Shown one piece after another: positions 191 through 30,810 of a stretch of DNA of 32,000 nucleotides. Both the position numbers and the translations under genes were made by a program. Origin of the DNA: Synechococcus sp. A15-24 (GTDB lineage: Bacteria > Cyanobacteriota > Cyanobacteriia > PCC-6307 > Cyanobiaceae); NCBI RefSeq assembly GCF_014280195.1, contig NZ_CP047960.1, positions 1,230,001 to 1,262,000 on the forward strand, read 5' to 3'. Every line of letters starts with the position of its first letter. The stretch's first letter is position 1. The notes beneath the pieces were generated by a model. The model searched no databases, was not told the origin of the DNA, and saw only the letters and a list, made by a program, of their open reading frames with translations.

Positions 191-448
191 TCAGCGGCGG
201 GGTTCGGCCTGACGAACTGTGATCCCGCGTCCCATCCACTCGACGTCCTGCAGGTCGTCGATGGCGGACTTTTCATCCGCAGCATTGGCAAGGTCGACAA
301 AGGCAAAGCCACGCTTTCGGCCGGTCTCCCGATCCAAAGGCAGCGAACACTTGCTGACCTCGCCGTACTGGCTGAACAGATGAACGAGGTCTTCTCTCTC
401 AGCGTCCCAGGAGAGATTGCCAATGAAAATCGTCAAAAAAAAGGCCAA
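191..448 (-). CDS. RRM-type RNA-binding protein (cyanobacterial Rbp family)
   Basis: Single RRM with RNP2 IFIGNL and RNP1 RGFAFVDL. The track start is TTG 448. An in-frame TTG at 436 (MTIFIGNLS) is the more typical N-terminus. Confidence 0.9.
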   Translation of the reverse strand: MAFFLTIFIGNLSWDAEREDLVHLFSQYGEVSKCSLPLDRETGRKRGFAFVDLANAADEKSAIDDLQDVEWMGRGITVRQAEPRR

Positions 449-766: not shown

Positions 767-1229
767 GCACGCCATTTCCAACATCGGTGGGCGCTGCCCC
801 AGAGGCAATGCGCCTTAACACCGATTGCCGGATGTGCTCCACGCGACCAACACTGTGGTCATCGAGATCGGAGGTGCCCATGACGGCCGACACTCCACCT
901 GAGCAACACCCAGAAGCTGCCTGACTGACTCGGCTCCTGCTCCAACAGTTTCCACACATCCGTAAGGCTCGTCCTTTGGCAGGCATTCCTTGAGCGCCAC
1001 GTCAATCGACACTCCATTGCACCGTCCTCAGGTGCCCAGGAGTCCACAAGCCTTCACAACTGGACCCCATGGCCCCAGGCGCCATCCAGCCAGACGCTTC
1101 GACCGTTTCTTCAGTCCCTTTGCTTGAGGTTCCAACTCACTGAAGCATTACTGATCAGGTCGATTGCTATGCACAAACGAGCGAGATAGGCCGTCCTTCC
1201 CATCCGGGAGGGGCGGCCTTCCCCTTGTT
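767..1229. repeat. 463-bp direct repeat, copy 1 (non-coding)
   Basis: Aligns without gaps to 4909-5371 (offset 4142) with only 5 mismatches. Ends in a GC-rich hairpin at 1189-1218. Confidence 0.95.
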
Positions 1230-1318
1230 GGGTGCATGGATCAAATCAATAGAAGGCCTGTTGTTTGGCGCTTTTCGATCCTTGGACTGTTCACCCTGGA
1301 TGTAGTTGCAGCGAAGCC

Positions 1319-1513
1319 ATGGGTGGATTGAGTGGCACCAAATCGGACGACTTCATCAACGCCGCCAAAGCACGTGCTGAGGCCGCCATTCAAGACAACC
1401 AGCCAAAGCTGACCAAACTGGAAAAGGCTTTCCGCCATGCCGCCCTGCGGCGCCGGGCCCAGGATGCCCGCAGGGCTGCTGACGACCATCGCGCCAAACC
1501 CAACACTCCATAA
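1319..1513 (+). CDS. hypothetical small protein (64 aa)
   Basis: ATG 1319 within track ORF 1265-1513 (MGGLSGTKSDDFINAAKARAEAAIQDNQPKLTKLEKAF..). Helical and charged, with G/C-rich third codon positions. Confidence 0.45.
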   Translation: MGGLSGTKSDDFINAAKARAEAAIQDNQPKLTKLEKAFRHAALRRRAQDARRAADDHRAKPNTP

Positions 1514-1604
1514 CAGATCAGAGCGACATCCGCAGGCCCTGAGCCCAATCCAGCGTGAACTCGAAACATAGTGTTACGGTTCGAAGGCTCTGTGTCCCCT
1601 GCGG

Positions 1605-2561
1605 ATGTTCACGCTCGACAAAGCTCGTCAGATCTTCCCAGACACGTTGAGCGCTGGTGCAGTCCCGGCCATCACAGCCCGCTTCAAGCTGCTGAGCGCA
1701 GAGGACCAGTTGGCACTTATCTGGTTTGCCTATCTGGAAATGGGGAAGACCATCACCGTGGCGGCACCGGGTGCGGCCCGCATGGCGCTGGCACAGCCGA
1801 CGATGGATGAAATTCTGGCGATGAGCTTTGACGAGCAGACCAAGGTGATGTGCGATTTGGCTTCCAAGATCAACAGCCCGATTTCGGCGCGCTACGCCTA
1901 CTGGTCGGTGAACGTGAAGCTGTGCTTCTGGTACGAGCTGGGCGAATTCATGCGCCAGGGCAAGGTGGCTCCGATTCCTCAGGGGTACAGGTTGTCCGCA
2001 AACGCCAACTCGGTGCTGGAGGCCGTCAAGAAAGTTGAGCAGGGCCAACAGATCACCCTGCTGCGCAACTTCGTGGTCGACATGGGCTACGACCCCGATG
2101 TGGACGACAGCCAGGTGGTCACCGAGCCGATCGTGGCTCCGACACCGGTTGATCAACGCGAGGAGATTCTGATCCCCGGCGTGCTGAATCAGACCATCCT
2201 CAGCTACATGCAGCTGCTCAATGCCAACGACTTTGATCAGCTGATCGATCTGTTTCTCAACGATGGTGCTCTGCAGCCCCCGTTCCAGCGTCCCATTGTC
2301 GGCCGCGACGCCATCCAGAAATTCTTCAAGCGGGATTGTCAGAACCTGAAGTTGATGCCCCAGGGCGGTTATGGCGAGCCGACCGAAGGTGGCTTCAATC
2401 AGATCAAGGTCACCGGCAAGGTGCAGACCCCCTGGTTCGGTCGTGAGGTGGGCATGAACGTGGCTTGGCGCTTCCTTCTGGATGAAAACGACAAAATCTA
2501 TTTCGTGGCCATCGACTTGCTGGCATCTCCAGCCGAGTTGCTCAAGCTGGGTGGCAAATGA
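1605..2561 (+). CDS. ocp: orange carotenoid protein (OCP)
   Basis: 318 aa, collinear with Synechocystis OCP: FPDTL.., LALIWFAYLEMGKTITVAAPGAA, YRLSANANSVLE. The NTF2-like C-domain shows GALQPPFQRPIVG, KVTGKVQTPWFG and FVAIDLLASP. Confidence 0.97.
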   Translation: MFTLDKARQIFPDTLSAGAVPAITARFKLLSAEDQLALIWFAYLEMGKTITVAAPGAARMALAQPTMDEILAMSFDEQTKVMCDLASKINSPISARYAYWSVNVKLCFWYELGEFMRQGKVAPIPQGYRLSANANSVLEAVKKVEQGQQITLLRNFVVDMGYDPDVDDSQVVTEPIVAPTPVDQREEILIPGVLNQTILSYMQLLNANDFDQLIDLFLNDGALQPPFQRPIVGRDAIQKFFKRDCQNLKLMPQGGYGEPTEGGFNQIKVTGKVQTPWFGREVGMNVAWRFLLDENDKIYFVAIDLLASPAELLKLGGK

Positions 2562-3285
2562 GTTCAGCCCTCAGGCCCGCAAAGGGTTGGTTCTGGCTGG
2601 TCTGATTGGATCCGCCTGGCTGCTCTCCCTGGGCCTGAGCTACACCCTGCCACTCGATCAGACGCCTGGGCTGTTGATTGGCAGCTTGATTCTGCTGAGG
2701 GCCTTTCTGCATACCGGGCTGTTCATCGTTGCCCACGATTCCATGCACGCCAGTCTTGTTCCGGGTCATCCCGGATTGAACAGCTGGATCGGCAAAGTTT
2801 GTTTAATGATGTATGCAGGCTTGTCTTATGAGCGTTGTTCCCGCAACCACATACGTCATCACCTGGCACCGGAAACGTTCCAGGATCCTGACTACCAATG
2901 TTGCACGAAAAACAACATCCTGGATTGGTATGTTCACTTTATGGGCAACTATCTGGGTGGCCAACAACTGTTGAATTTAAGTTTTCTTTGGCTGACACTT
3001 GTCATTCTCAACGGTTCTGATCTCCCTGTTCAGATCATGCATCTGCTGTTGTTCAGCGTTCTGCCACTGATCATCAGTTCCTGTCAATTGTTTCTAGTGG
3101 GAACCTGGTTACCCCACCGACGTGGGGCCACGACACGACCGGGCGTGACAACGCGCAGCCTGGCCTTGCATCCAGCACTATCTTTCGCAGCTTGTTACCA
3201 CTTTGGCTATCATCGCGAACATCATGAATCGCCTTCCACTCCCTGGTTTCAGCTGCCACAACTCCGAAGTGAATCATTCATTTGA
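2551..3285 (+). CDS. crtW: beta-carotene ketolase CrtW
   Basis: His boxes AHDSMH, HIRHH and HREHH, plus hydrophobic segments. The track ORF begins inside ocp. GTG 2551 (overlapping the ocp stop) is the first plausible start, so the exact start is uncertain. Confidence 0.9.
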   Translation: MANEFSPQARKGLVLAGLIGSAWLLSLGLSYTLPLDQTPGLLIGSLILLRAFLHTGLFIVAHDSMHASLVPGHPGLNSWIGKVCLMMYAGLSYERCSRNHIRHHLAPETFQDPDYQCCTKNNILDWYVHFMGNYLGGQQLLNLSFLWLTLVILNGSDLPVQIMHLLLFSVLPLIISSCQLFLVGTWLPHRRGATTRPGVTTRSLALHPALSFAACYHFGYHREHHESPSTPWFQLPQLRSESFI

Positions 3286-3330
3286 CCATTTCTGACCAAC
3301 GCTGATTTCCTCCTCACCGCTTTCCCCTTC

Positions 3331-3651
3331 ATGTCGGCAACAGACTGGACATCCGAAGAACAGGCCGTTGCCCGCACTGCCTTCGAACTTGGCAAACATC
3401 GTTCAATCACGGCTTTGATTTCAACTCTGCAGGAGCAATCCAGCAACCTTGATACACCGGAATCGGTCTGGAAGCTGCATGACCACCTCAGCACTGAGCG
3501 CTATCTGTATGAAGGGCGCGCTGAGTTTGACGAAGGTAATGTGTTGTTCGTGTTAGCCGACATGATCAAACAACGTTTGATCGCTTTGGATGATCTGCAA
3601 GGGTTGGATCAAACTAAAGTGATCAAAGTCAAAGCGATGTCGATGTTCTGA
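3331..3651 (+). CDS. frp: fluorescence recovery protein (FRP)
   Basis: 106 aa and helical. Matches the FRP pattern (W..EE...A...F, WKLHDHLS, EGRAEFDE) and sits in the canonical ocp-crtW-frp position. Confidence 0.9.
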   Translation: MSATDWTSEEQAVARTAFELGKHRSITALISTLQEQSSNLDTPESVWKLHDHLSTERYLYEGRAEFDEGNVLFVLADMIKQRLIALDDLQGLDQTKVIKVKAMSMF

Positions 3652-3689
3652 TCGACACGCAGAGATGTGATCAGAACCACCAGGCAACT

Positions 3690-4895
3690 TCAACGCAGTG
3701 AGCGTCCCTTCCAGGTCCACCCCTGACCGGTGAAGGTCCGCCAAACCGACACGGGCCCGATGGCGCCAACAATCAACCCTCCGGCCCCCATCAGCCACCA
3801 GTAATCGATGGGTAGTTGAAATTCCCGTCTGGTCCACAGACGCAGGATGAACTGCTGAAGAACTGCGACTGTGGCGGCAGCCAGCAGAGCCAGCCACCAC
3901 CGCTGAGCGATCGGGAGAACCAACAACAATCCAGTCGAAACTGGAATCAGCAACCAGGGCAGGCTGAACATCAGCACCACCACGCCAGCAGCAGCCAGTC
4001 CTTTGCCGGGATCGCGATCCAGTCCAAGGCACCAGTTTTTGGTCCAGCCTTCCCACAACGCGGCCAGATCGGCGTACATACGCAGATCAACGGCATCAAG
4101 ACCCAGCAGGTAGCGCAAGCGATAACCGCCCGTCTTGATCCTGCGCGCCAATGCCAGATCCTCCACCACCTCTGCCGCCAGAGCACGGTGCCCACCGATC
4201 CGCTCATAAACACTGCGGCGGATGAGCATGAACGGTCCCGCAGCAAAGGCAACGTCGGAGTCGGGATCATTGGCGGCCTCGATCGGAAAACCCAGCCCCA
4301 GCAGGCTGGCCATGATCGGTTGCACCATCCATTCGGCCAAGCAGCCACAGGTGAGTCGCGGCGCCAGGCTCAACAGATCCGCCTGATCCGCGATCGCCTG
4401 AGCCAGTGCTCGTGGGATGGCATCGGCTTGAAGCTGCACATCGGCATCGATGAACAGCACCCAGTCGCTGCGCACCTGCTCCATGGCCCGGGTGCACGCC
4501 CAGTTCTTGCCCACCCAGCGTTCAGAGGCCGGACGGGGACCTGCCGGCAGCACACTGAACCCCGCCGTGGACTGCGGGTGGCGGGCAGCACAGGCCACCG
4601 CCAGCTCCGCTGTGGCATCGGTTGAGTCGTCATCCACCACCAACACCTGCCACTCCACGCAGGGGGGCTGGCCCTTGAGCACGCTGGCCAGGCAAGCGCC
4701 GATGTTGCCGGCTTCGTTGTAGGCCGGAATCACCACCGTGAGGGAGGTCCGGGGCACAGGCGTGTCCGCCGCAGCCTGCAACTGCGGCGCCACTGCGAAC
4801 ACCCGCCAGAGACCGAGCTGCAGGATCAACAGGCCAATGCAGGAGGCCATGGCGGTGGCCAGCAACCCCAGCGCAACGATCACCAGTGGATCCAA
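3690..4895 (-). CDS. family 2 glycosyltransferase, membrane-anchored (CrtQ/HpnB-like architecture)
   Basis: 401 aa with an N-terminal TM helix. Motifs VVIPAYNE, VVDDDSTD, FIDAD and WVGKNWA, plus C-terminal TM helices. Confidence 0.9.
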   Translation of the reverse strand: MDPLVIVALGLLATAMASCIGLLILQLGLWRVFAVAPQLQAAADTPVPRTSLTVVIPAYNEAGNIGACLASVLKGQPPCVEWQVLVVDDDSTDATAELAVACAARHPQSTAGFSVLPAGPRPASERWVGKNWACTRAMEQVRSDWVLFIDADVQLQADAIPRALAQAIADQADLLSLAPRLTCGCLAEWMVQPIMASLLGLGFPIEAANDPDSDVAFAAGPFMLIRRSVYERIGGHRALAAEVVEDLALARRIKTGGYRLRYLLGLDAVDLRMYADLAALWEGWTKNWCLGLDRDPGKGLAAAGVVVLMFSLPWLLIPVSTGLLLVLPIAQRWWLALLAAATVAVLQQFILRLWTRREFQLPIDYWWLMGAGGLIVGAIGPVSVWRTFTGQGWTWKGRSLR

Positions 4896-4908
4896 AGGCT
4901 GTCGGCAA

Positions 4909-5371
4909 GCACGCCATTCCCAACATCGGTGGGCGCTGCCCCAGAGGCAATGCGCCTTAACACCGATTGCCGGATGTGCTCCACGCGACCAACACTGTGG
5001 TCATCGAGATCGGAGGTGCCCATGACGGCCGACACTCCACCTGAGCAACACCCAGAAGCTGCCTGACTGACTCGGCTCCTGCTCCAACAGTTTCCACCCA
5101 TCCGTAAGGCTCGTCCTTTGGCAGGCTTTCCTTGAGCGCCACGTCAATCGACACTCCATTGCACCGTCTTCAGGTGCCCAGGAGTCCACAAGCCTTCACA
5201 ACTGGACCCCATGGCCCCAGGCGCCATCCAGCCAGACGCTTCGACCGTTTCTTCAGTCCCTTTGCTTGAGGTTCCAACTCCCTGAAGCATTACTGATCAG
5301 GTCGATTGCTATGCACAAACGAGCGAGATAGGCCGTCCTTCCCATCCGGGAGGGGCGGCCTTCCCCTTGTT
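4909..5371. repeat. 463-bp direct repeat, copy 2 (non-coding)
   Basis: Same as 767-1229. Mismatches at 4919, 5098, 5127, 5169 and 5281. Hairpin at 5331-5360. Starts 13 nt from the GT2 start codon. Confidence 0.95.
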
Positions 5372-5769: not shown

Positions 5770-6006
5770 TTACTTCTGGCGCTTAAAGGTGTAGCAACCA
5801 CCGTGGTAACCGGTGAAGGGCTGGGCATAGGTGGTGAGCTCCCAGCCCTGTTCCCCCAGCTCATTCATCAACCCCACCAAGGTCACATCACGCTGGGGGT
5901 GGCTGCGGGAAATGATCTGACGATCATCCAGCCACAACTCTTCGATCTCACCGGTCCACGACTTACCGCGGGGCACAAAGCGGAGCTGGGTGTATTCCCA
6001 CTTCAT
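5770..6006 (-). CDS. DUF4177-like small protein
   Basis: Internal ATG 6004-6006 of the track ORF. Shows the MKWEYTQL.. start, ..LMNELGEQGWELT.. and ..FKRQK, the pattern typical of DUF4177. Confidence 0.7.
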   Translation of the reverse strand: MKWEYTQLRFVPRGKSWTGEIEELWLDDRQIISRSHPQRDVTLVGLMNELGEQGWELTTYAQPFTGYHGGCYTFKRQK

Positions 6007-6029
6007 CGCGGACCGGTAGGGGCAGTGGA

Positions 6030-6281
6030 TCAAAGCACGCCGAGTGGGCTCTTCTTCTTCTTGCAGTAGCCAGCGCCGATGTTCATCCAACCGGCCTTGC
6101 AGGCCTGGCCATTGGTGGGAGCTACCTCGTAATACACCGGAGACACACAGGTGGTACCGAGGGTGTTGACGTAGCCAGCAGGGCACTGATCAAAACCGGG
6201 GGCCTTGGGGATCTCCTTCTGCGCCAGGGCAGCGGAAGGAGCCACCAACAAAGGAAGCAGGGCGAGAAGAACGGAGCGCAT
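6030..6281 (-). CDS. secreted Cys-rich small protein
   Basis: ATG 6279-6281. Signal peptide MRSVLLALLPLLVAPSAALA, then 4 Cys and a KKKK tail. Confidence 0.65.
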   Translation of the reverse strand: MRSVLLALLPLLVAPSAALAQKEIPKAPGFDQCPAGYVNTLGTTCVSPVYYEVAPTNGQACKAGWMNIGAGYCKKKKSPLGVL

Positions 6282-6399
6282 CAGGCGAAAGCGGCAAGAG
6301 CACCCAACGGTTTTAGGCAAATCCGCAGCAATCGACAGCCCTTCGCACGACAATTGTGCAAAGGATCCGACAGAGTGCCGGCACTTTAGGCTCCTACCC

Positions 6400-6702
6400 A
6401 TGACCACTCCCAGCCGCGATCAGGTGCTGGCATCCTCCGCCGGTTGGGTGGCCGTGCTGCTCAACGTGGTGCCCGGACTCGGGGCCGGCTACCTCTACCA
6501 GCGCCGCTGGCGGGCCTACTGGATCACCTCGGCTGTGGCCACCGCCTGGTTCGTGGCAGGTGCCGTGCTGGCTCAGGATGCGGACGCTGCTGCCGAAGCG
6601 CAGAACCAACTGGTGGGGTTGATCGGCCTGCTGGTGCTGGCGGGGGTGACCGCCACCGAAGCCGGCCTAACACTGAAGCAGGTGCGTCAGTCACTCTCCT
6701 GA
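6400..6702 (+). CDS. small integral membrane protein (100 aa)
   Basis: ATG 6400 in frame with track ORF 6205-6702. Several hydrophobic helices, including GLGAGYLYQRRW. Confidence 0.7.
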   Translation: MTTPSRDQVLASSAGWVAVLLNVVPGLGAGYLYQRRWRAYWITSAVATAWFVAGAVLAQDADAAAEAQNQLVGLIGLLVLAGVTATEAGLTLKQVRQSLS

Positions 6703-6710
6703 TCTGAGGG

Positions 6711-6875
6711 TTACTCAGGCAGGCGTTCAACTGCGACGTGCATGAAGCGCTTGACCATGGCGATCGGCCAGCCTTCACGCTGCAGCTCCTCAGCGATCTG
6801 ATTGATCTGATTGGCAATCTCCTCAGCCACCAGCTCCTCAAGCAGGTGGTTTGAGTGCTGGGTGGATGCGGTCAT
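6711..6875 (-). CDS. hypothetical small protein (54 aa)
   Basis: Sub-cutoff ORF (MTASTQHSNHLLEELVAEEIANQINQIAEELQREGWPIAMVKRFMHVAVERLPE). Protein-like composition, unlike the overlapping Arg/Ser-rich 105-aa track ORF. Confidence 0.5.
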   Translation of the reverse strand: MTASTQHSNHLLEELVAEEIANQINQIAEELQREGWPIAMVKRFMHVAVERLPE

Positions 6876-7506: not shown

Positions 7507-7666
7507 GAAGCACTCCTCTCTGCTGCAGCGACTCGGCACCTATCTGCTGGGGTTGGTGGACGAATACTGGGCCATGAGGCGACCCTGGCAGTACGGCAAC
7601 AAACAGCCCCAGTGCGGCTTGCAATGCGATGGCGATCATTGCCAGCGCAGCGACGAAGCTATTTGA
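7505..7666 (+). CDS. hypothetical small protein (53 aa), uncertain
   Basis: MKHSSLLQRLGTYLLGLVDEYWAMRRPWQYGNKQPQCGLQCDGDHCQRSDEAI. Strongly G/C-biased third positions. Conflicts with 7300-7506. Confidence 0.35.
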   Translation: MKHSSLLQRLGTYLLGLVDEYWAMRRPWQYGNKQPQCGLQCDGDHCQRSDEAI

Positions 7667-7670
7667 ATCG

Positions 7671-7718
7671 CAAGAACAGAAAAAGGAAGGCGGCCGCTGG
7701 TGTGAGAGGGCGGCCGCC
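7671..7718 (-). terminator. GC-rich hairpin followed by a U-rich tract on the minus strand
   Basis: 9-bp stem GGCGGCCGC (7689-7697) pairs with GCGGCCGCC (7710-7718). On the minus strand it is followed by TTCCTTTTTCTGTTCTTG. No obvious upstream minus-strand gene. Confidence 0.4.
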
Positions 7719-7814
7719 AGAGAGCCAACTTCCCGATCAGCTCCACGCATGTTTTAACCGCGGCTTAAAGCAGCAGCTGTTGGAATGGATACACCGTCGC
7801 TCCATCGAAGCTGC

Positions 7815-8132
7815 ATGAATCATTCGGCTCAGGTTCTTGTTCTGTTGAGTTCGCTCCTCCAGGGGGTCGCTCTGGCCAACACCACGTCAAGAGAGCAGCA
7901 GTCGGTGATCGCACGCTGGACCGGTGAAAACATCTGCAAGATGGGCACCGAACGGTTCTACGCACTGCCAGAGGACGACGTCCGCAAGCTTTTTGAAAGC
8001 CAGACGTCCATGCGGTACGACGACATCCCGTTGAACCCAAGCGAATCAGAACGCAACAGAATCACGTCTCAACTCACCGGTTACATCTCTGCCGTTTGCC
8101 CAGGAGAACTGGAAAATTATCGGAAACTGTGA
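7815..8132 (+). CDS. secreted hypothetical protein
   Basis: ATG 7815 gives signal peptide MNHSAQVLVLLSSLLQGVALA. The remainder is protein-like. Confidence 0.7.
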   Translation: MNHSAQVLVLLSSLLQGVALANTTSREQQSVIARWTGENICKMGTERFYALPEDDVRKLFESQTSMRYDDIPLNPSESERNRITSQLTGYISAVCPGELENYRKL

Positions 8133-29290: not shown

Positions 29291-29837
29291 TGAACTGAGA
29301 ATGAGCACTCACACCGTAAGGACGGTGCTGAATGGCGCAGCCAACGTCACCATCCGTAAGCATCGATGCACACAGGTATCAGCCAAAAGTGTTCATCTGA
29401 TCATGATCTTCAGAGAATCTTTGCGTTCTCATCCTTCTGAAGAGGTCGTCTGATCCTTCATTTGGTCGCCATCGCAGCAGTGCTGGGGGTGCACGGAGGA
29501 GGACATTGTTGAAATCATTCCACTTGATCAATGCCCCTCAACCCTGTCGTGAAGCTGTTGAAATCAACATCGACAGTCAAATCAAACGCAGACAAAACAA
29601 AACCAGCTCTACTTCCACGACCTCTTCGACCGGATCCAATTCGTCCACGAAAACAATCCATCGAAACCAGCTGGGACGAACTCCGGCAGGAATACTCGGG
29701 GCTCGGTTGAGGCGGTTTCCGCAAATTTCTCTGTTGTGTAGCGGCATGAACGACAGAACCCTGGACAGAGCCTGTAGAACATTGATGTAGCAACAGCTAC
29801 AACACGTTCACCTCACCACCGGTGAGGCGCAGTTCGA

Positions 29838-29883
29838 CTCAGGCCATGGAACGGGGACCTGAGCTTGCTTCGAGGAACCCATC
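29838..29883 (+). promoter_or_regulatory. probable glutamine-II riboswitch (Downstream-peptide motif), copy B
   Basis: 6-bp stem CTCAGG (29838-29843) pairs with CCTGAG (29858-29863), enclosing CCATGGAACGGGGA. This is followed by GCTTGCTTC, GAGGAA (SD-like) and ATG 29884. Confidence 0.65.
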
Positions 29884-30704: not shown

Positions 30705-30810
30705 GGGCGGAGAAACCTAGGGTTCCGATCCCATCAGGGATGTCTGGTCCAAGAGGTTTCGGTCGGTTCTGCCGGCTGCACGGAGGGACAAAAGCCCGGG
30801 AGACCGCAAC
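30705..30810 (+). promoter_or_regulatory. guanidine-I riboswitch (ykkC-yxkD motif)
   Basis: The conserved blocks appear in the correct order: CCTAGGGTTCCG, GGTCCAAGAG and ACGGAGGGACAAAAGCCCGGGAGA. The element ends about 20 nt before the ureohydrolase ATG. Confidence 0.85.

Follow-up and report, generated by a model that had tools for sequence, protein, structure and literature searches.

The 32,000-nucleotide (nt) stretch of Synechococcus sp. A15-24 analysed here (contig NZ_CP047960.1, positions 1,230,001 to 1,262,000 of the forward strand, numbered from its first letter and referred to as the window) contains two direct repeats of 463 nt each, at positions 767-1229 (copy 1) and 4909-5371 (copy 2). 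The best explanation of the data as a whole, with a probability of roughly 0.88, is that each copy constitutes a gene in its own right and belongs to the Yfr103 family, known from marine Synechococcus and low-light Prochlorococcus. The promoter takes up the first ~95 nt of the repeated unit, and transcription proceeds along the plus strand from about positions 861-869 (copy 1) or 5003-5011 (copy 2) to an intrinsic terminator at 1189-1229 or 5331-5371. The product is a structured RNA of ~365 nt, consisting of a 5' hairpin, a multi-helix domain closed by the pairing of GAAGC with GCUUC, a 3' region of variable length and the terminator. The element belongs to a known family of non-coding RNAs (ncRNAs), and the finding itself is not new.

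The two copies align without gaps and with only five substitutions, at copy 1 positions 777, 956, 985, 1027 and 1139, in agreement with an earlier note on this DNA that was made from the letters alone. At both ends of the repeat the homology between the flanks of the copies is lost abruptly. A 23-nt core sequence of the unit occurs exactly twice in the window, with an expectation of 0 from 100 shuffled sequences, so that the repeat is not a product of chance. Copy 1 is located between the open reading frame (ORF) 495-686, which adjoins a gene for an RRM-type RNA-binding protein, and a cassette containing the gene for the orange carotenoid protein (OCP). Copy 2 lies 13 nt from the start of a divergent gene for a family-2 glycosyltransferase (GT2); this distance had been given correctly before, the start codon being TTG at 4895 instead of the ATG that was assumed. 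Both flanks of copy 2 are kept in contig L001, which carries the GT2 start, the unit and the right flank (L001 to L111 denote the contigs of other genomes and metagenomes that were compared with the window).

The unit does not appear to encode a protein, as had been claimed from the sequence. The largest ORFs within it do not exceed 65 amino acids, and a Pfam search of every ORF touching the unit gave no match. The longest minus-strand frame reads KECLPKDEPYGC in copy 1 and KESLPKDEPYGW in copy 2, exactly as quoted previously. ORFs of 50-65 amino acids are present in several frames, and metagenome gene callers have made 'proteins' across the unit (P0001, P0003-P0007), which might point to a degraded gene fragment or pseudogene that was duplicated together with the surrounding genomic island. 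However, these predicted proteins agree neither in start and stop nor in reading frame, and a protein search with the minus-strand ORF that runs into the unit retrieved only metagenomic pseudo-proteins with inconsistent starts and frames. Moreover, conservation is blockwise, with compensatory changes and without codon periodicity, and indels of 1 nt and 2 nt occur throughout the family. These indels, together with a region of variable length, imply that the units are not coding, and a pseudogene origin is given almost no credence.

Homologues were collected with the exact 23-nt core as a pattern, followed by a profile search with nhmmer. The core is found at 21 loci in reference genomes, all of them marine Synechococcus or Parasynechococcus, and in 71 metagenome contigs, while none was found in viral contigs and phage genome records. 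The profile search yielded 110 matches in marine Synechococcus genomes and metagenomes, of which 65 are full length (417-477 nt); the ends of the latter are identical to those of the window repeat, and they differ from each other by the 1-nt and 2-nt indels mentioned above. All named matches are from marine Synechococcus or Parasynechococcus, Prochlorococcus being outside the sample owing to the exact-match pattern. The unit in L003, for example, is 72% identical to that of the window and has the same boundaries, unrelated flanks, 1-nt indels and a 24-nt deletion. Four copies are present in PH41509 and two each in CUG2217, CUG2137, Parasynechococcus Bin2 and the window. Many matches are located at contig ends, as expected for repeats, which break assemblies. 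In one subtype (L027, L039, L040, L067, L076 and L077) the stretch between profile positions 339 and 402 is enlarged from ~60 to ~145 nt, ahead of a conserved block near the terminator. With at least 110 instances, fixed boundaries, frame-breaking indels and a terminator and internal helices that covary, the unit is indeed the conserved, non-coding, structured element that the earlier note had taken it for. Rfam, whose models include tmRNA, RNase P, 6S, riboswitches, group I/II introns and HEARO, gave no match on the unit at the gathering thresholds, and only chance-level scores of 11-20 bits for E values up to 10; ARAGORN detected neither a tRNA nor a tmRNA in it.

The promoter is evident from an alignment of 63 family sequences (A4), in which the conserved blocks of the first 100 columns are an imperfect palindrome, a -10 element and an A/G-rich start region. 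The upstream blocks read GGCAATG.GC ... C.GAT(T)GCC, followed by a hexamer of the pattern nAnAnT. Columns 40-48 and 56-64, corresponding to the palindrome, are invariant or nearly invariant, and columns 85, 87 and 89 are A, A and T in 62 of the 63 sequences each. The palindrome, with its two arms separated by 14 nt, is probably the site of a dimeric transcription factor. Two nested helices had been proposed for this region from copy 1 (783-789 ATCGGTG with 819-825 CACCGAT, and 790-794 GGCGC with 810-814 GCGCC), as well as a competing or pseudoknot pairing of 804-809 GGCAAT with 824-829 ATTGCC. All of these pairings are present in the DNA, the last one being the promoter palindrome itself; since they are located upstream of the transcription start and overlap the palindrome, they do not represent RNA structure. 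A reading of CTTAAC in the palindrome spacer as a Pho box was dropped, this motif being present in one subtype only. At the other end of the unit, the hairpin noticed earlier at 1189-1218 and 5331-5360 is real, with a G+C-rich stem of 12-13 base pairs followed by TTCCCCTTGTT, and the region of its 3' arm gives a terminator-like call on the plus strand.

The assignment to Yfr103 is based on comparison with Synechococcus CC9605. According to the published account (Hou et al. 2016, Sci Rep 6:35470, PMC5069720), CC9605 contains seven paralogous ncRNAs, Yfr103a-g, of 290-328 nt, which together account for 55.2% of the mdRNA-seq reads recruited to this genome. Their secondary structure is described as strongly conserved, and the genes have a -10 element (Fig. 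S3c) and, at -29 to -58, an imperfect palindrome that is likewise conserved. Many marine Synechococcus strains, and low-light Prochlorococcus, contain homologues, and the function is termed 'enigmatic'. The supplement gives coordinates for all seven paralogs, including Yfr103e (520334-520624, minus strand) and Yfr103b (523173-523498, minus strand), as well as sequences for three small genes newly detected in the vicinity of these two, Syn_n009, Syn_n011 and Syn_n012 (PMC5069720).

Syn_n009, Syn_n011 and Syn_n012 were found at 91-100% identity in contigs L050 and L083, beside units on the same strand that match the family profile with E values of 1e-43 to 1e-134. Relative to the Syn_n genes these units occupy the places of Yfr103b and Yfr103e, with distances that agree within ~6 nt. 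When the CC9605 coordinates are transferred by distance from Syn_n009 and Syn_n012, Yfr103e projects to 2798-3088 of L083, within the unit at 2756-3183, and Yfr103b to 7553-7878, within the unit at 7509-7971; in L050 the start of Yfr103b projects to 2915, within the unit at 2545-2927. Each of the three mapped starts falls into CATCGAGATC, 93-102 nt from the 5' boundary of the unit and 7-15 nt downstream of the -10 element, and the annotated 3' ends project ~42-45 nt before the end of the unit, directly ahead of the terminator hairpin. The position of the palindrome (~-57 to -32) agrees with that published for yfr103 promoters. The synteny, the projected starts, and the palindrome and -10 element as published thus suggest that the unit is a complete yfr103 gene, an identification by position and architecture rather than by direct alignment. 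Of the possibilities left by the earlier note, a plus-strand ncRNA that ends at the hairpin is the one supported, and it coincides with an RNA whose transcription has been demonstrated experimentally. The element is thus a known one, although Yfr103 has no Rfam model. Voigt et al. reportedly described Yfr103 in Prochlorococcus MIT9313 in 2014.

Several points weigh against this identification, or limit its reach. Synteny, distances and promoter architecture carry it, not a direct alignment with the CC9605 genes. The published lengths of 290-328 nt are shorter than the computed distance from start to terminator, 323-374 nt in the family with a median of 363 nt, a gap that we explain by the annotation, which leaves out the terminator hairpin at the 3' end, and by the existence of shorter paralogs. 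The expression share of 55% refers to reads recruited to CC9605 and not to the genome of the window. All homologues but two were collected through the exact 23-mer, so that the apparent invariance of the core and of the 5' hairpin is partly an artefact of ascertainment; the two copies that were found only by proximity do vary within the 23-nt core. Helices that are invariant allow no covariation. In the second part of our interpretation, a collapse by the assembler could explain why the L102 copies are completely identical, and the idea of recombination handles is not general for OCP, with unbracketed operons in L110 and L111. Finally, the trans-acting, protein-binding mode of action considered below is entirely conjectural; the proposal is demonstrated to the level of gene anatomy only.

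The fold of the RNA is supported by covariation in the terminator, in a helix formed by A4 columns 201-205 and 296-301, and in a hairpin formed by columns 210-212 and 218-220, the latter two being located in the central domain. RNAalifold predicts 49 pairs for the 63 sequences, and in an independent count of the 47 pairs within the transcribed part 98.4% of the cells are paired, compared to 42-51% when the partners are slid by 1-3 columns. Two-sided changes are observed in 10 pairs and 109 cells, a level reached in none of 500 shuffles. The terminator (helix 11) comprises 12 pairs, four of which show two-sided changes, with 99.5% of the cells paired. The 5' hairpin, which encloses a GGAGG Shine-Dalgarno-like motif and an AUG at 5022, and the GAAGC/GCUUC helix never vary in the sample, and are neither supported nor contradicted. 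The minimum free energy of the window RNA has a z-score of -2.6 on the plus strand and -1.8 on the minus strand. Naive all-against-all covariation scans were swamped by clade structure and are uninformative, and a RIBOSUM-weighted RNAalifold run of the RNA part was not used, as it gave an implausible global fold that wrecks half of the terminator.

At the very 5' end of the RNA (5012-5066; copy 1 870-924) a perfect GGAGG-N5-AUG is invariant in the family, and the 14 codons that follow are kept in 59 of the 63 members, the remaining four having a stop after 10 codons. It is conceivable that the transcript serves as an mRNA or dual-function RNA for a peptide of 14 residues, MTADTPPEQxxEA(A/D/S). 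The invariance of the ribosome-binding motif, spacing and AUG, the common stop codon, and the open frames with conservative changes in the two copies found without the 23-mer (MTDDTPPQQTEEAD and MTAETPPQQI) would be in line with translation. In contrast, conservation in this ORF extends equally to synonymous positions, an indication that the constraint acts on the RNA. In the predicted fold GGAG and CUCC form a stem with the AUG in its loop, and the GAAGC arm of the long-range helix falls on codons 12-13. The four early stops are located in a variable stretch of 6 nt, at about the rate expected without selection. Hou et al., who identified new small proteins from the same data, nevertheless assigned the transcript to the ncRNAs (PMC5069720). 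In addition, translation of the peptide would not account for the ~300 nt of conserved structure that follow. The arguments against a coding function are not decisive, and translation is retained as a minority hypothesis that we regard as unlikely. A tmRNA-like reading, with an Ala resume codon and a stop after ...EAA, was dropped, as there is no tRNA-like domain and no ARAGORN match, and many copies read ...EAD.

The orientation of the gene also bears on the suggestion, made in the earlier note, that the GT2 gene and ORF 495-686 share the unit as a 5' leader or cis-regulatory RNA on the minus strand. On the minus strand the copies do end just upstream of a start codon, copy 2 at 13 nt before the TTG of GT2 and copy 1 at 80 nt before the ATG at 686, the latter distance being as given. 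In other genomes, however, unrelated sequences adjoin the unit on this side, where more than 30 different neighbours are seen, and the flanks differ completely between copies and genomes. Terminator and promoter are both oriented along the plus strand, the CC9605 transcripts correspond to the plus strand of the unit, and the minus strand folds less distinctively. A shared leader is contradicted by these data and very improbable.

The features of the two yfr103-type units and of the genes around them are collected in Table 1.

Table 1. Features of the yfr103-type units and neighbouring genes in the window (copy 1 equivalents in brackets).
Feature	Position	Strand	Basis or remark
Copy 1, yfr103-type unit (promoter, RNA gene and terminator)	767-1229	+	nhmmer family profile 1-462, E = 8.8e-125
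Copy 2, yfr103-type unit	4909-5371	+	nhmmer, E = 2.6e-124
Imperfect palindrome GGCAAT-N14-ATTGCC, ~-57 to -32, putative transcription-factor site	4946-4971 (804-829)	+	A4 columns
-10 element AACACT, family pattern nAnAnT	4991-4996 (849-854)	+	
Inferred transcription start region ATCGAGATC	5003-5011 (861-869)	+	projected CC9605 starts
Yfr103-type RNA, ~365 nt including terminator	5003-5371 (861-1229)	+	length, fold, covariation
5' hairpin, GGAG 5012-5015 with CUCC 5035-5038, AUG 5022 in loop	5012-5038	+	invariant in sample
14-codon ORF MTADTPPEQHPEAA, putative translation	5022-5066 (880-924)	+	
Central domain, long-range helix GAAGC 5055-5059 with GCUUC 5238-5242	5055-5242	+	RNAalifold
Intrinsic terminator, 12-13 bp hairpin 5331-5360 and UUCCCCUUGUU tail	5331-5371 (1189-1229)	+	
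RRM-type RNA-binding protein, left of copy 1 with ORF 495-686	191-448	-	
Bracketed cassette: small ORF, OCP, CrtW-like ketolase, FRP, GT2	1230-4908		Pfam
Small ORF, ~64 amino acids, no Pfam match	1322-1513	+	called gene in L102, L103, L109
OCP (orange carotenoid protein)	1605-2561		Pfam
CrtW-type ketolase	2482-3285		Pfam
FRP (fluorescence recovery protein)	3331-3651		Pfam
GT2, divergent family-2 glycosyltransferase, TTG start 4895	3690-4895	-	Pfam

The order RRM, orf63, unit, orf64, OCP, CrtW, FRP, GT2, unit is also present in L102, L103 and L109, and is therefore not an assembly artefact of the window. The small ORF of ~64 amino acids is often found 3' of a unit (L008, L032, L034, L035, L044 and L074), and it occurs without a unit in L002, which contains RRM, ORF495, the small ORF and GT2. 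The ocp-crtW-frp operon, which serves photoprotection, has been described as a niche-related flexible cluster of cold-water Synechococcus (PMC10119275); the words 'repeat' and 'tycheposon' are absent from the main text of that paper. The RRM gene adjoins a yfr103 unit in many strains (the window, L031, L032, L034, L035, L044 and L074), an arrangement that may have arisen by chance or may hint at a protein partner. In L103 (GCA_902540675.1) the OCP gene, at 5938-6758, is split into three short ORFs, either as a pseudogene or by sequencing errors. Many OCP-bearing contigs are just 2.7-3.2 kb long, and the contigs L104-L108 on the RRM side begin inside the unit; the Yfr103 repeats appear to fragment short-read assemblies systematically around the OCP operon. 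Elsewhere in the window, full-length Rfam matches identify a Glutamine-II riboswitch at 29802-29863 (plus strand, 71.9 bits, gathering score 33) and a Guanidine-I riboswitch at 30706-30804 (plus strand, 87.6 bits, gathering score 63).

Directly oriented pairs of yfr103 units flank cassettes of 2.3-4.3 kb in the window and in L102, L103, L109, L006, L056, L050, L083, L022 and L046. The bracketed content is OCP-CrtW-FRP alone in L006 and L056, and a cassette with Syn_n012 and Syn_n011 in CC9605, L050 and L083, while L022 and L046 contain further cassettes. In CC9605 itself Yfr103e and Yfr103b likewise bracket a cassette, at a distance of 2.5 kb (coordinates in the supplement of PMC5069720). Many contigs end inside units. 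When tested, the bracketing of OCP operons proved not to be universal: in L110 no unit lies within 6 kb of the operon, and in L111 there is only one, upstream.

Within-genome paralogs elsewhere are 65-80% identical, with one pair at 95%, whereas the pair that brackets OCP is 98.9-100% identical in each of four genomes (the window, L102, L103 and L109). At 14-15 variable sites the two copies within a genome are the same and differ between genomes, compared to 1-2 sites with the orthologous pattern, and the cassette between the copies diverges by 3.4-6.5% among these genomes. Other units are mosaics. The unit of L008 (117-581) is 100% identical to that of the window in columns 1-38 only and ~75% elsewhere, and the unit of L074 (2746-3214) is 95% identical in columns 39-100 only and matches L031 and L035 elsewhere. 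The near-identity, the concerted sites and the mosaicism point to gene conversion. We tentatively propose, as a possibility somewhat short of even odds, that the ~460-nt yfr103 paralogs are portable homology handles around flexible island cassettes, which are homogenised by gene conversion and mediate the gain, loss and shuffling of these cassettes. In the window, the two copies would be homology patches within a hypervariable island that bracket OCP-CrtW-FRP(-GT2). Gene conversion would keep the patches nearly identical, and homologous recombination between them could lead to gain, loss or exchange of the cassette.

Some of the same observations would also fit a primarily mobile or recombinational DNA element, resembling a miniature inverted-repeat transposable element (MITE) or an attC-like attachment site, of which transcription is incidental. 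The unit is multi-copy, with up to four per genome, assemblies break inside it, different cassettes are bracketed in direct orientation by units that can be mosaic, and L002 resembles an 'empty site' without copy 1. On the other hand, the unit lacks terminal inverted repeats (none of at least 30 nt was found), the flanks of the two copies show no clear target-site duplication, no transposase or integrase is present among the neighbour families inspected, and the gene maps reveal no recurrent partner gene. In ~15 contigs, one copy type is found at a core locus whose synteny is conserved (trpA ... cupin > unit < PsiE ... sigma factor). Furthermore, the unit includes a promoter, for which a start site has been mapped, and a terminator that covaries, and its family accounts for 55% of the CC9605 mdRNA-seq reads. 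Homologous recombination between paralogs explains the bracketing without dedicated machinery, and a mobile element is considered quite improbable.

How the Yfr103 RNA may act can be outlined only in general terms. It would function in trans as an abundant structured RNA under a control that depends on the palindrome, and would more likely bind or titrate a conserved protein or ribosomal partner than base-pair with particular mRNAs. The partner might be contacted through the invariant 5' hairpin and motifs at the helix junctions. In the field, Yfr103 is reportedly the transcript with the highest abundance in marine Synechococcus. With neither an Rfam model nor an assigned function, it keeps being rediscovered by annotation pipelines and readers as an unexplained repeat. 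To the published description the present analysis adds the 63-sequence alignment with its boundaries, the anatomy of promoter, start and terminator in window coordinates, and covariation support for several of the helices. Beyond what is contained in the accessible part of PMC5069720, it adds the bracketing of the OCP operon and other cassettes by near-identical copies with signs of gene conversion and mosaicism. This bracketing suggests a simple route for the gain and loss of a niche-adaptive operon, and calls for caution with metagenome assemblies, which break at yfr103 genes. If the paralogs do serve as homology handles, the most abundant transcript of these cells would be tied to the mechanics of island plasticity.

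The yfr103 units can be compared to several known systems. Like integron attC sites and MITEs, they are repeated structured elements around cassettes, but they lack an integrase, inverted termini and target duplications, and they possess a promoter and a terminator and are massively transcribed. tRNA and tmRNA genes are integration and recombination hot spots of genomic islands, for example in the tycheposons of Prochlorococcus. The yfr103 units similarly represent a small RNA gene that is repeated at the borders of flexible cassettes in picocyanobacterial islands. Their repeats, however, are whole paralogous genes of ~460 nt instead of short att duplications, no integrase is seen beside them, and mosaicism and concerted evolution point to general homologous recombination. 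With 6S RNA (Yfr7), RNAs of the CsrB/RsmZ type and other abundant RNAs that bind proteins, Yfr103 shares a very high abundance, a structured and stand-alone character and invariant motifs, which may offer an analogy for its mode of action; it differs in the absence of an Rfam match, in size and architecture, and in having no known partner protein. The closest correspondence is with Yfr103 as published. The window pair is unusually similar (~99%) and brackets the OCP operon, an arrangement not mentioned in the accessible part of PMC5069720, and it represents a long subtype, of ~365 nt including the terminator compared to the 290-328 nt annotated. Nothing essential differs: both are multi-copy, stand-alone genes of marine picocyanobacteria with their own start site, a conserved secondary structure, an imperfect palindrome ~30-58 nt upstream, a -10 element and a transcript of ~300-370 nt.

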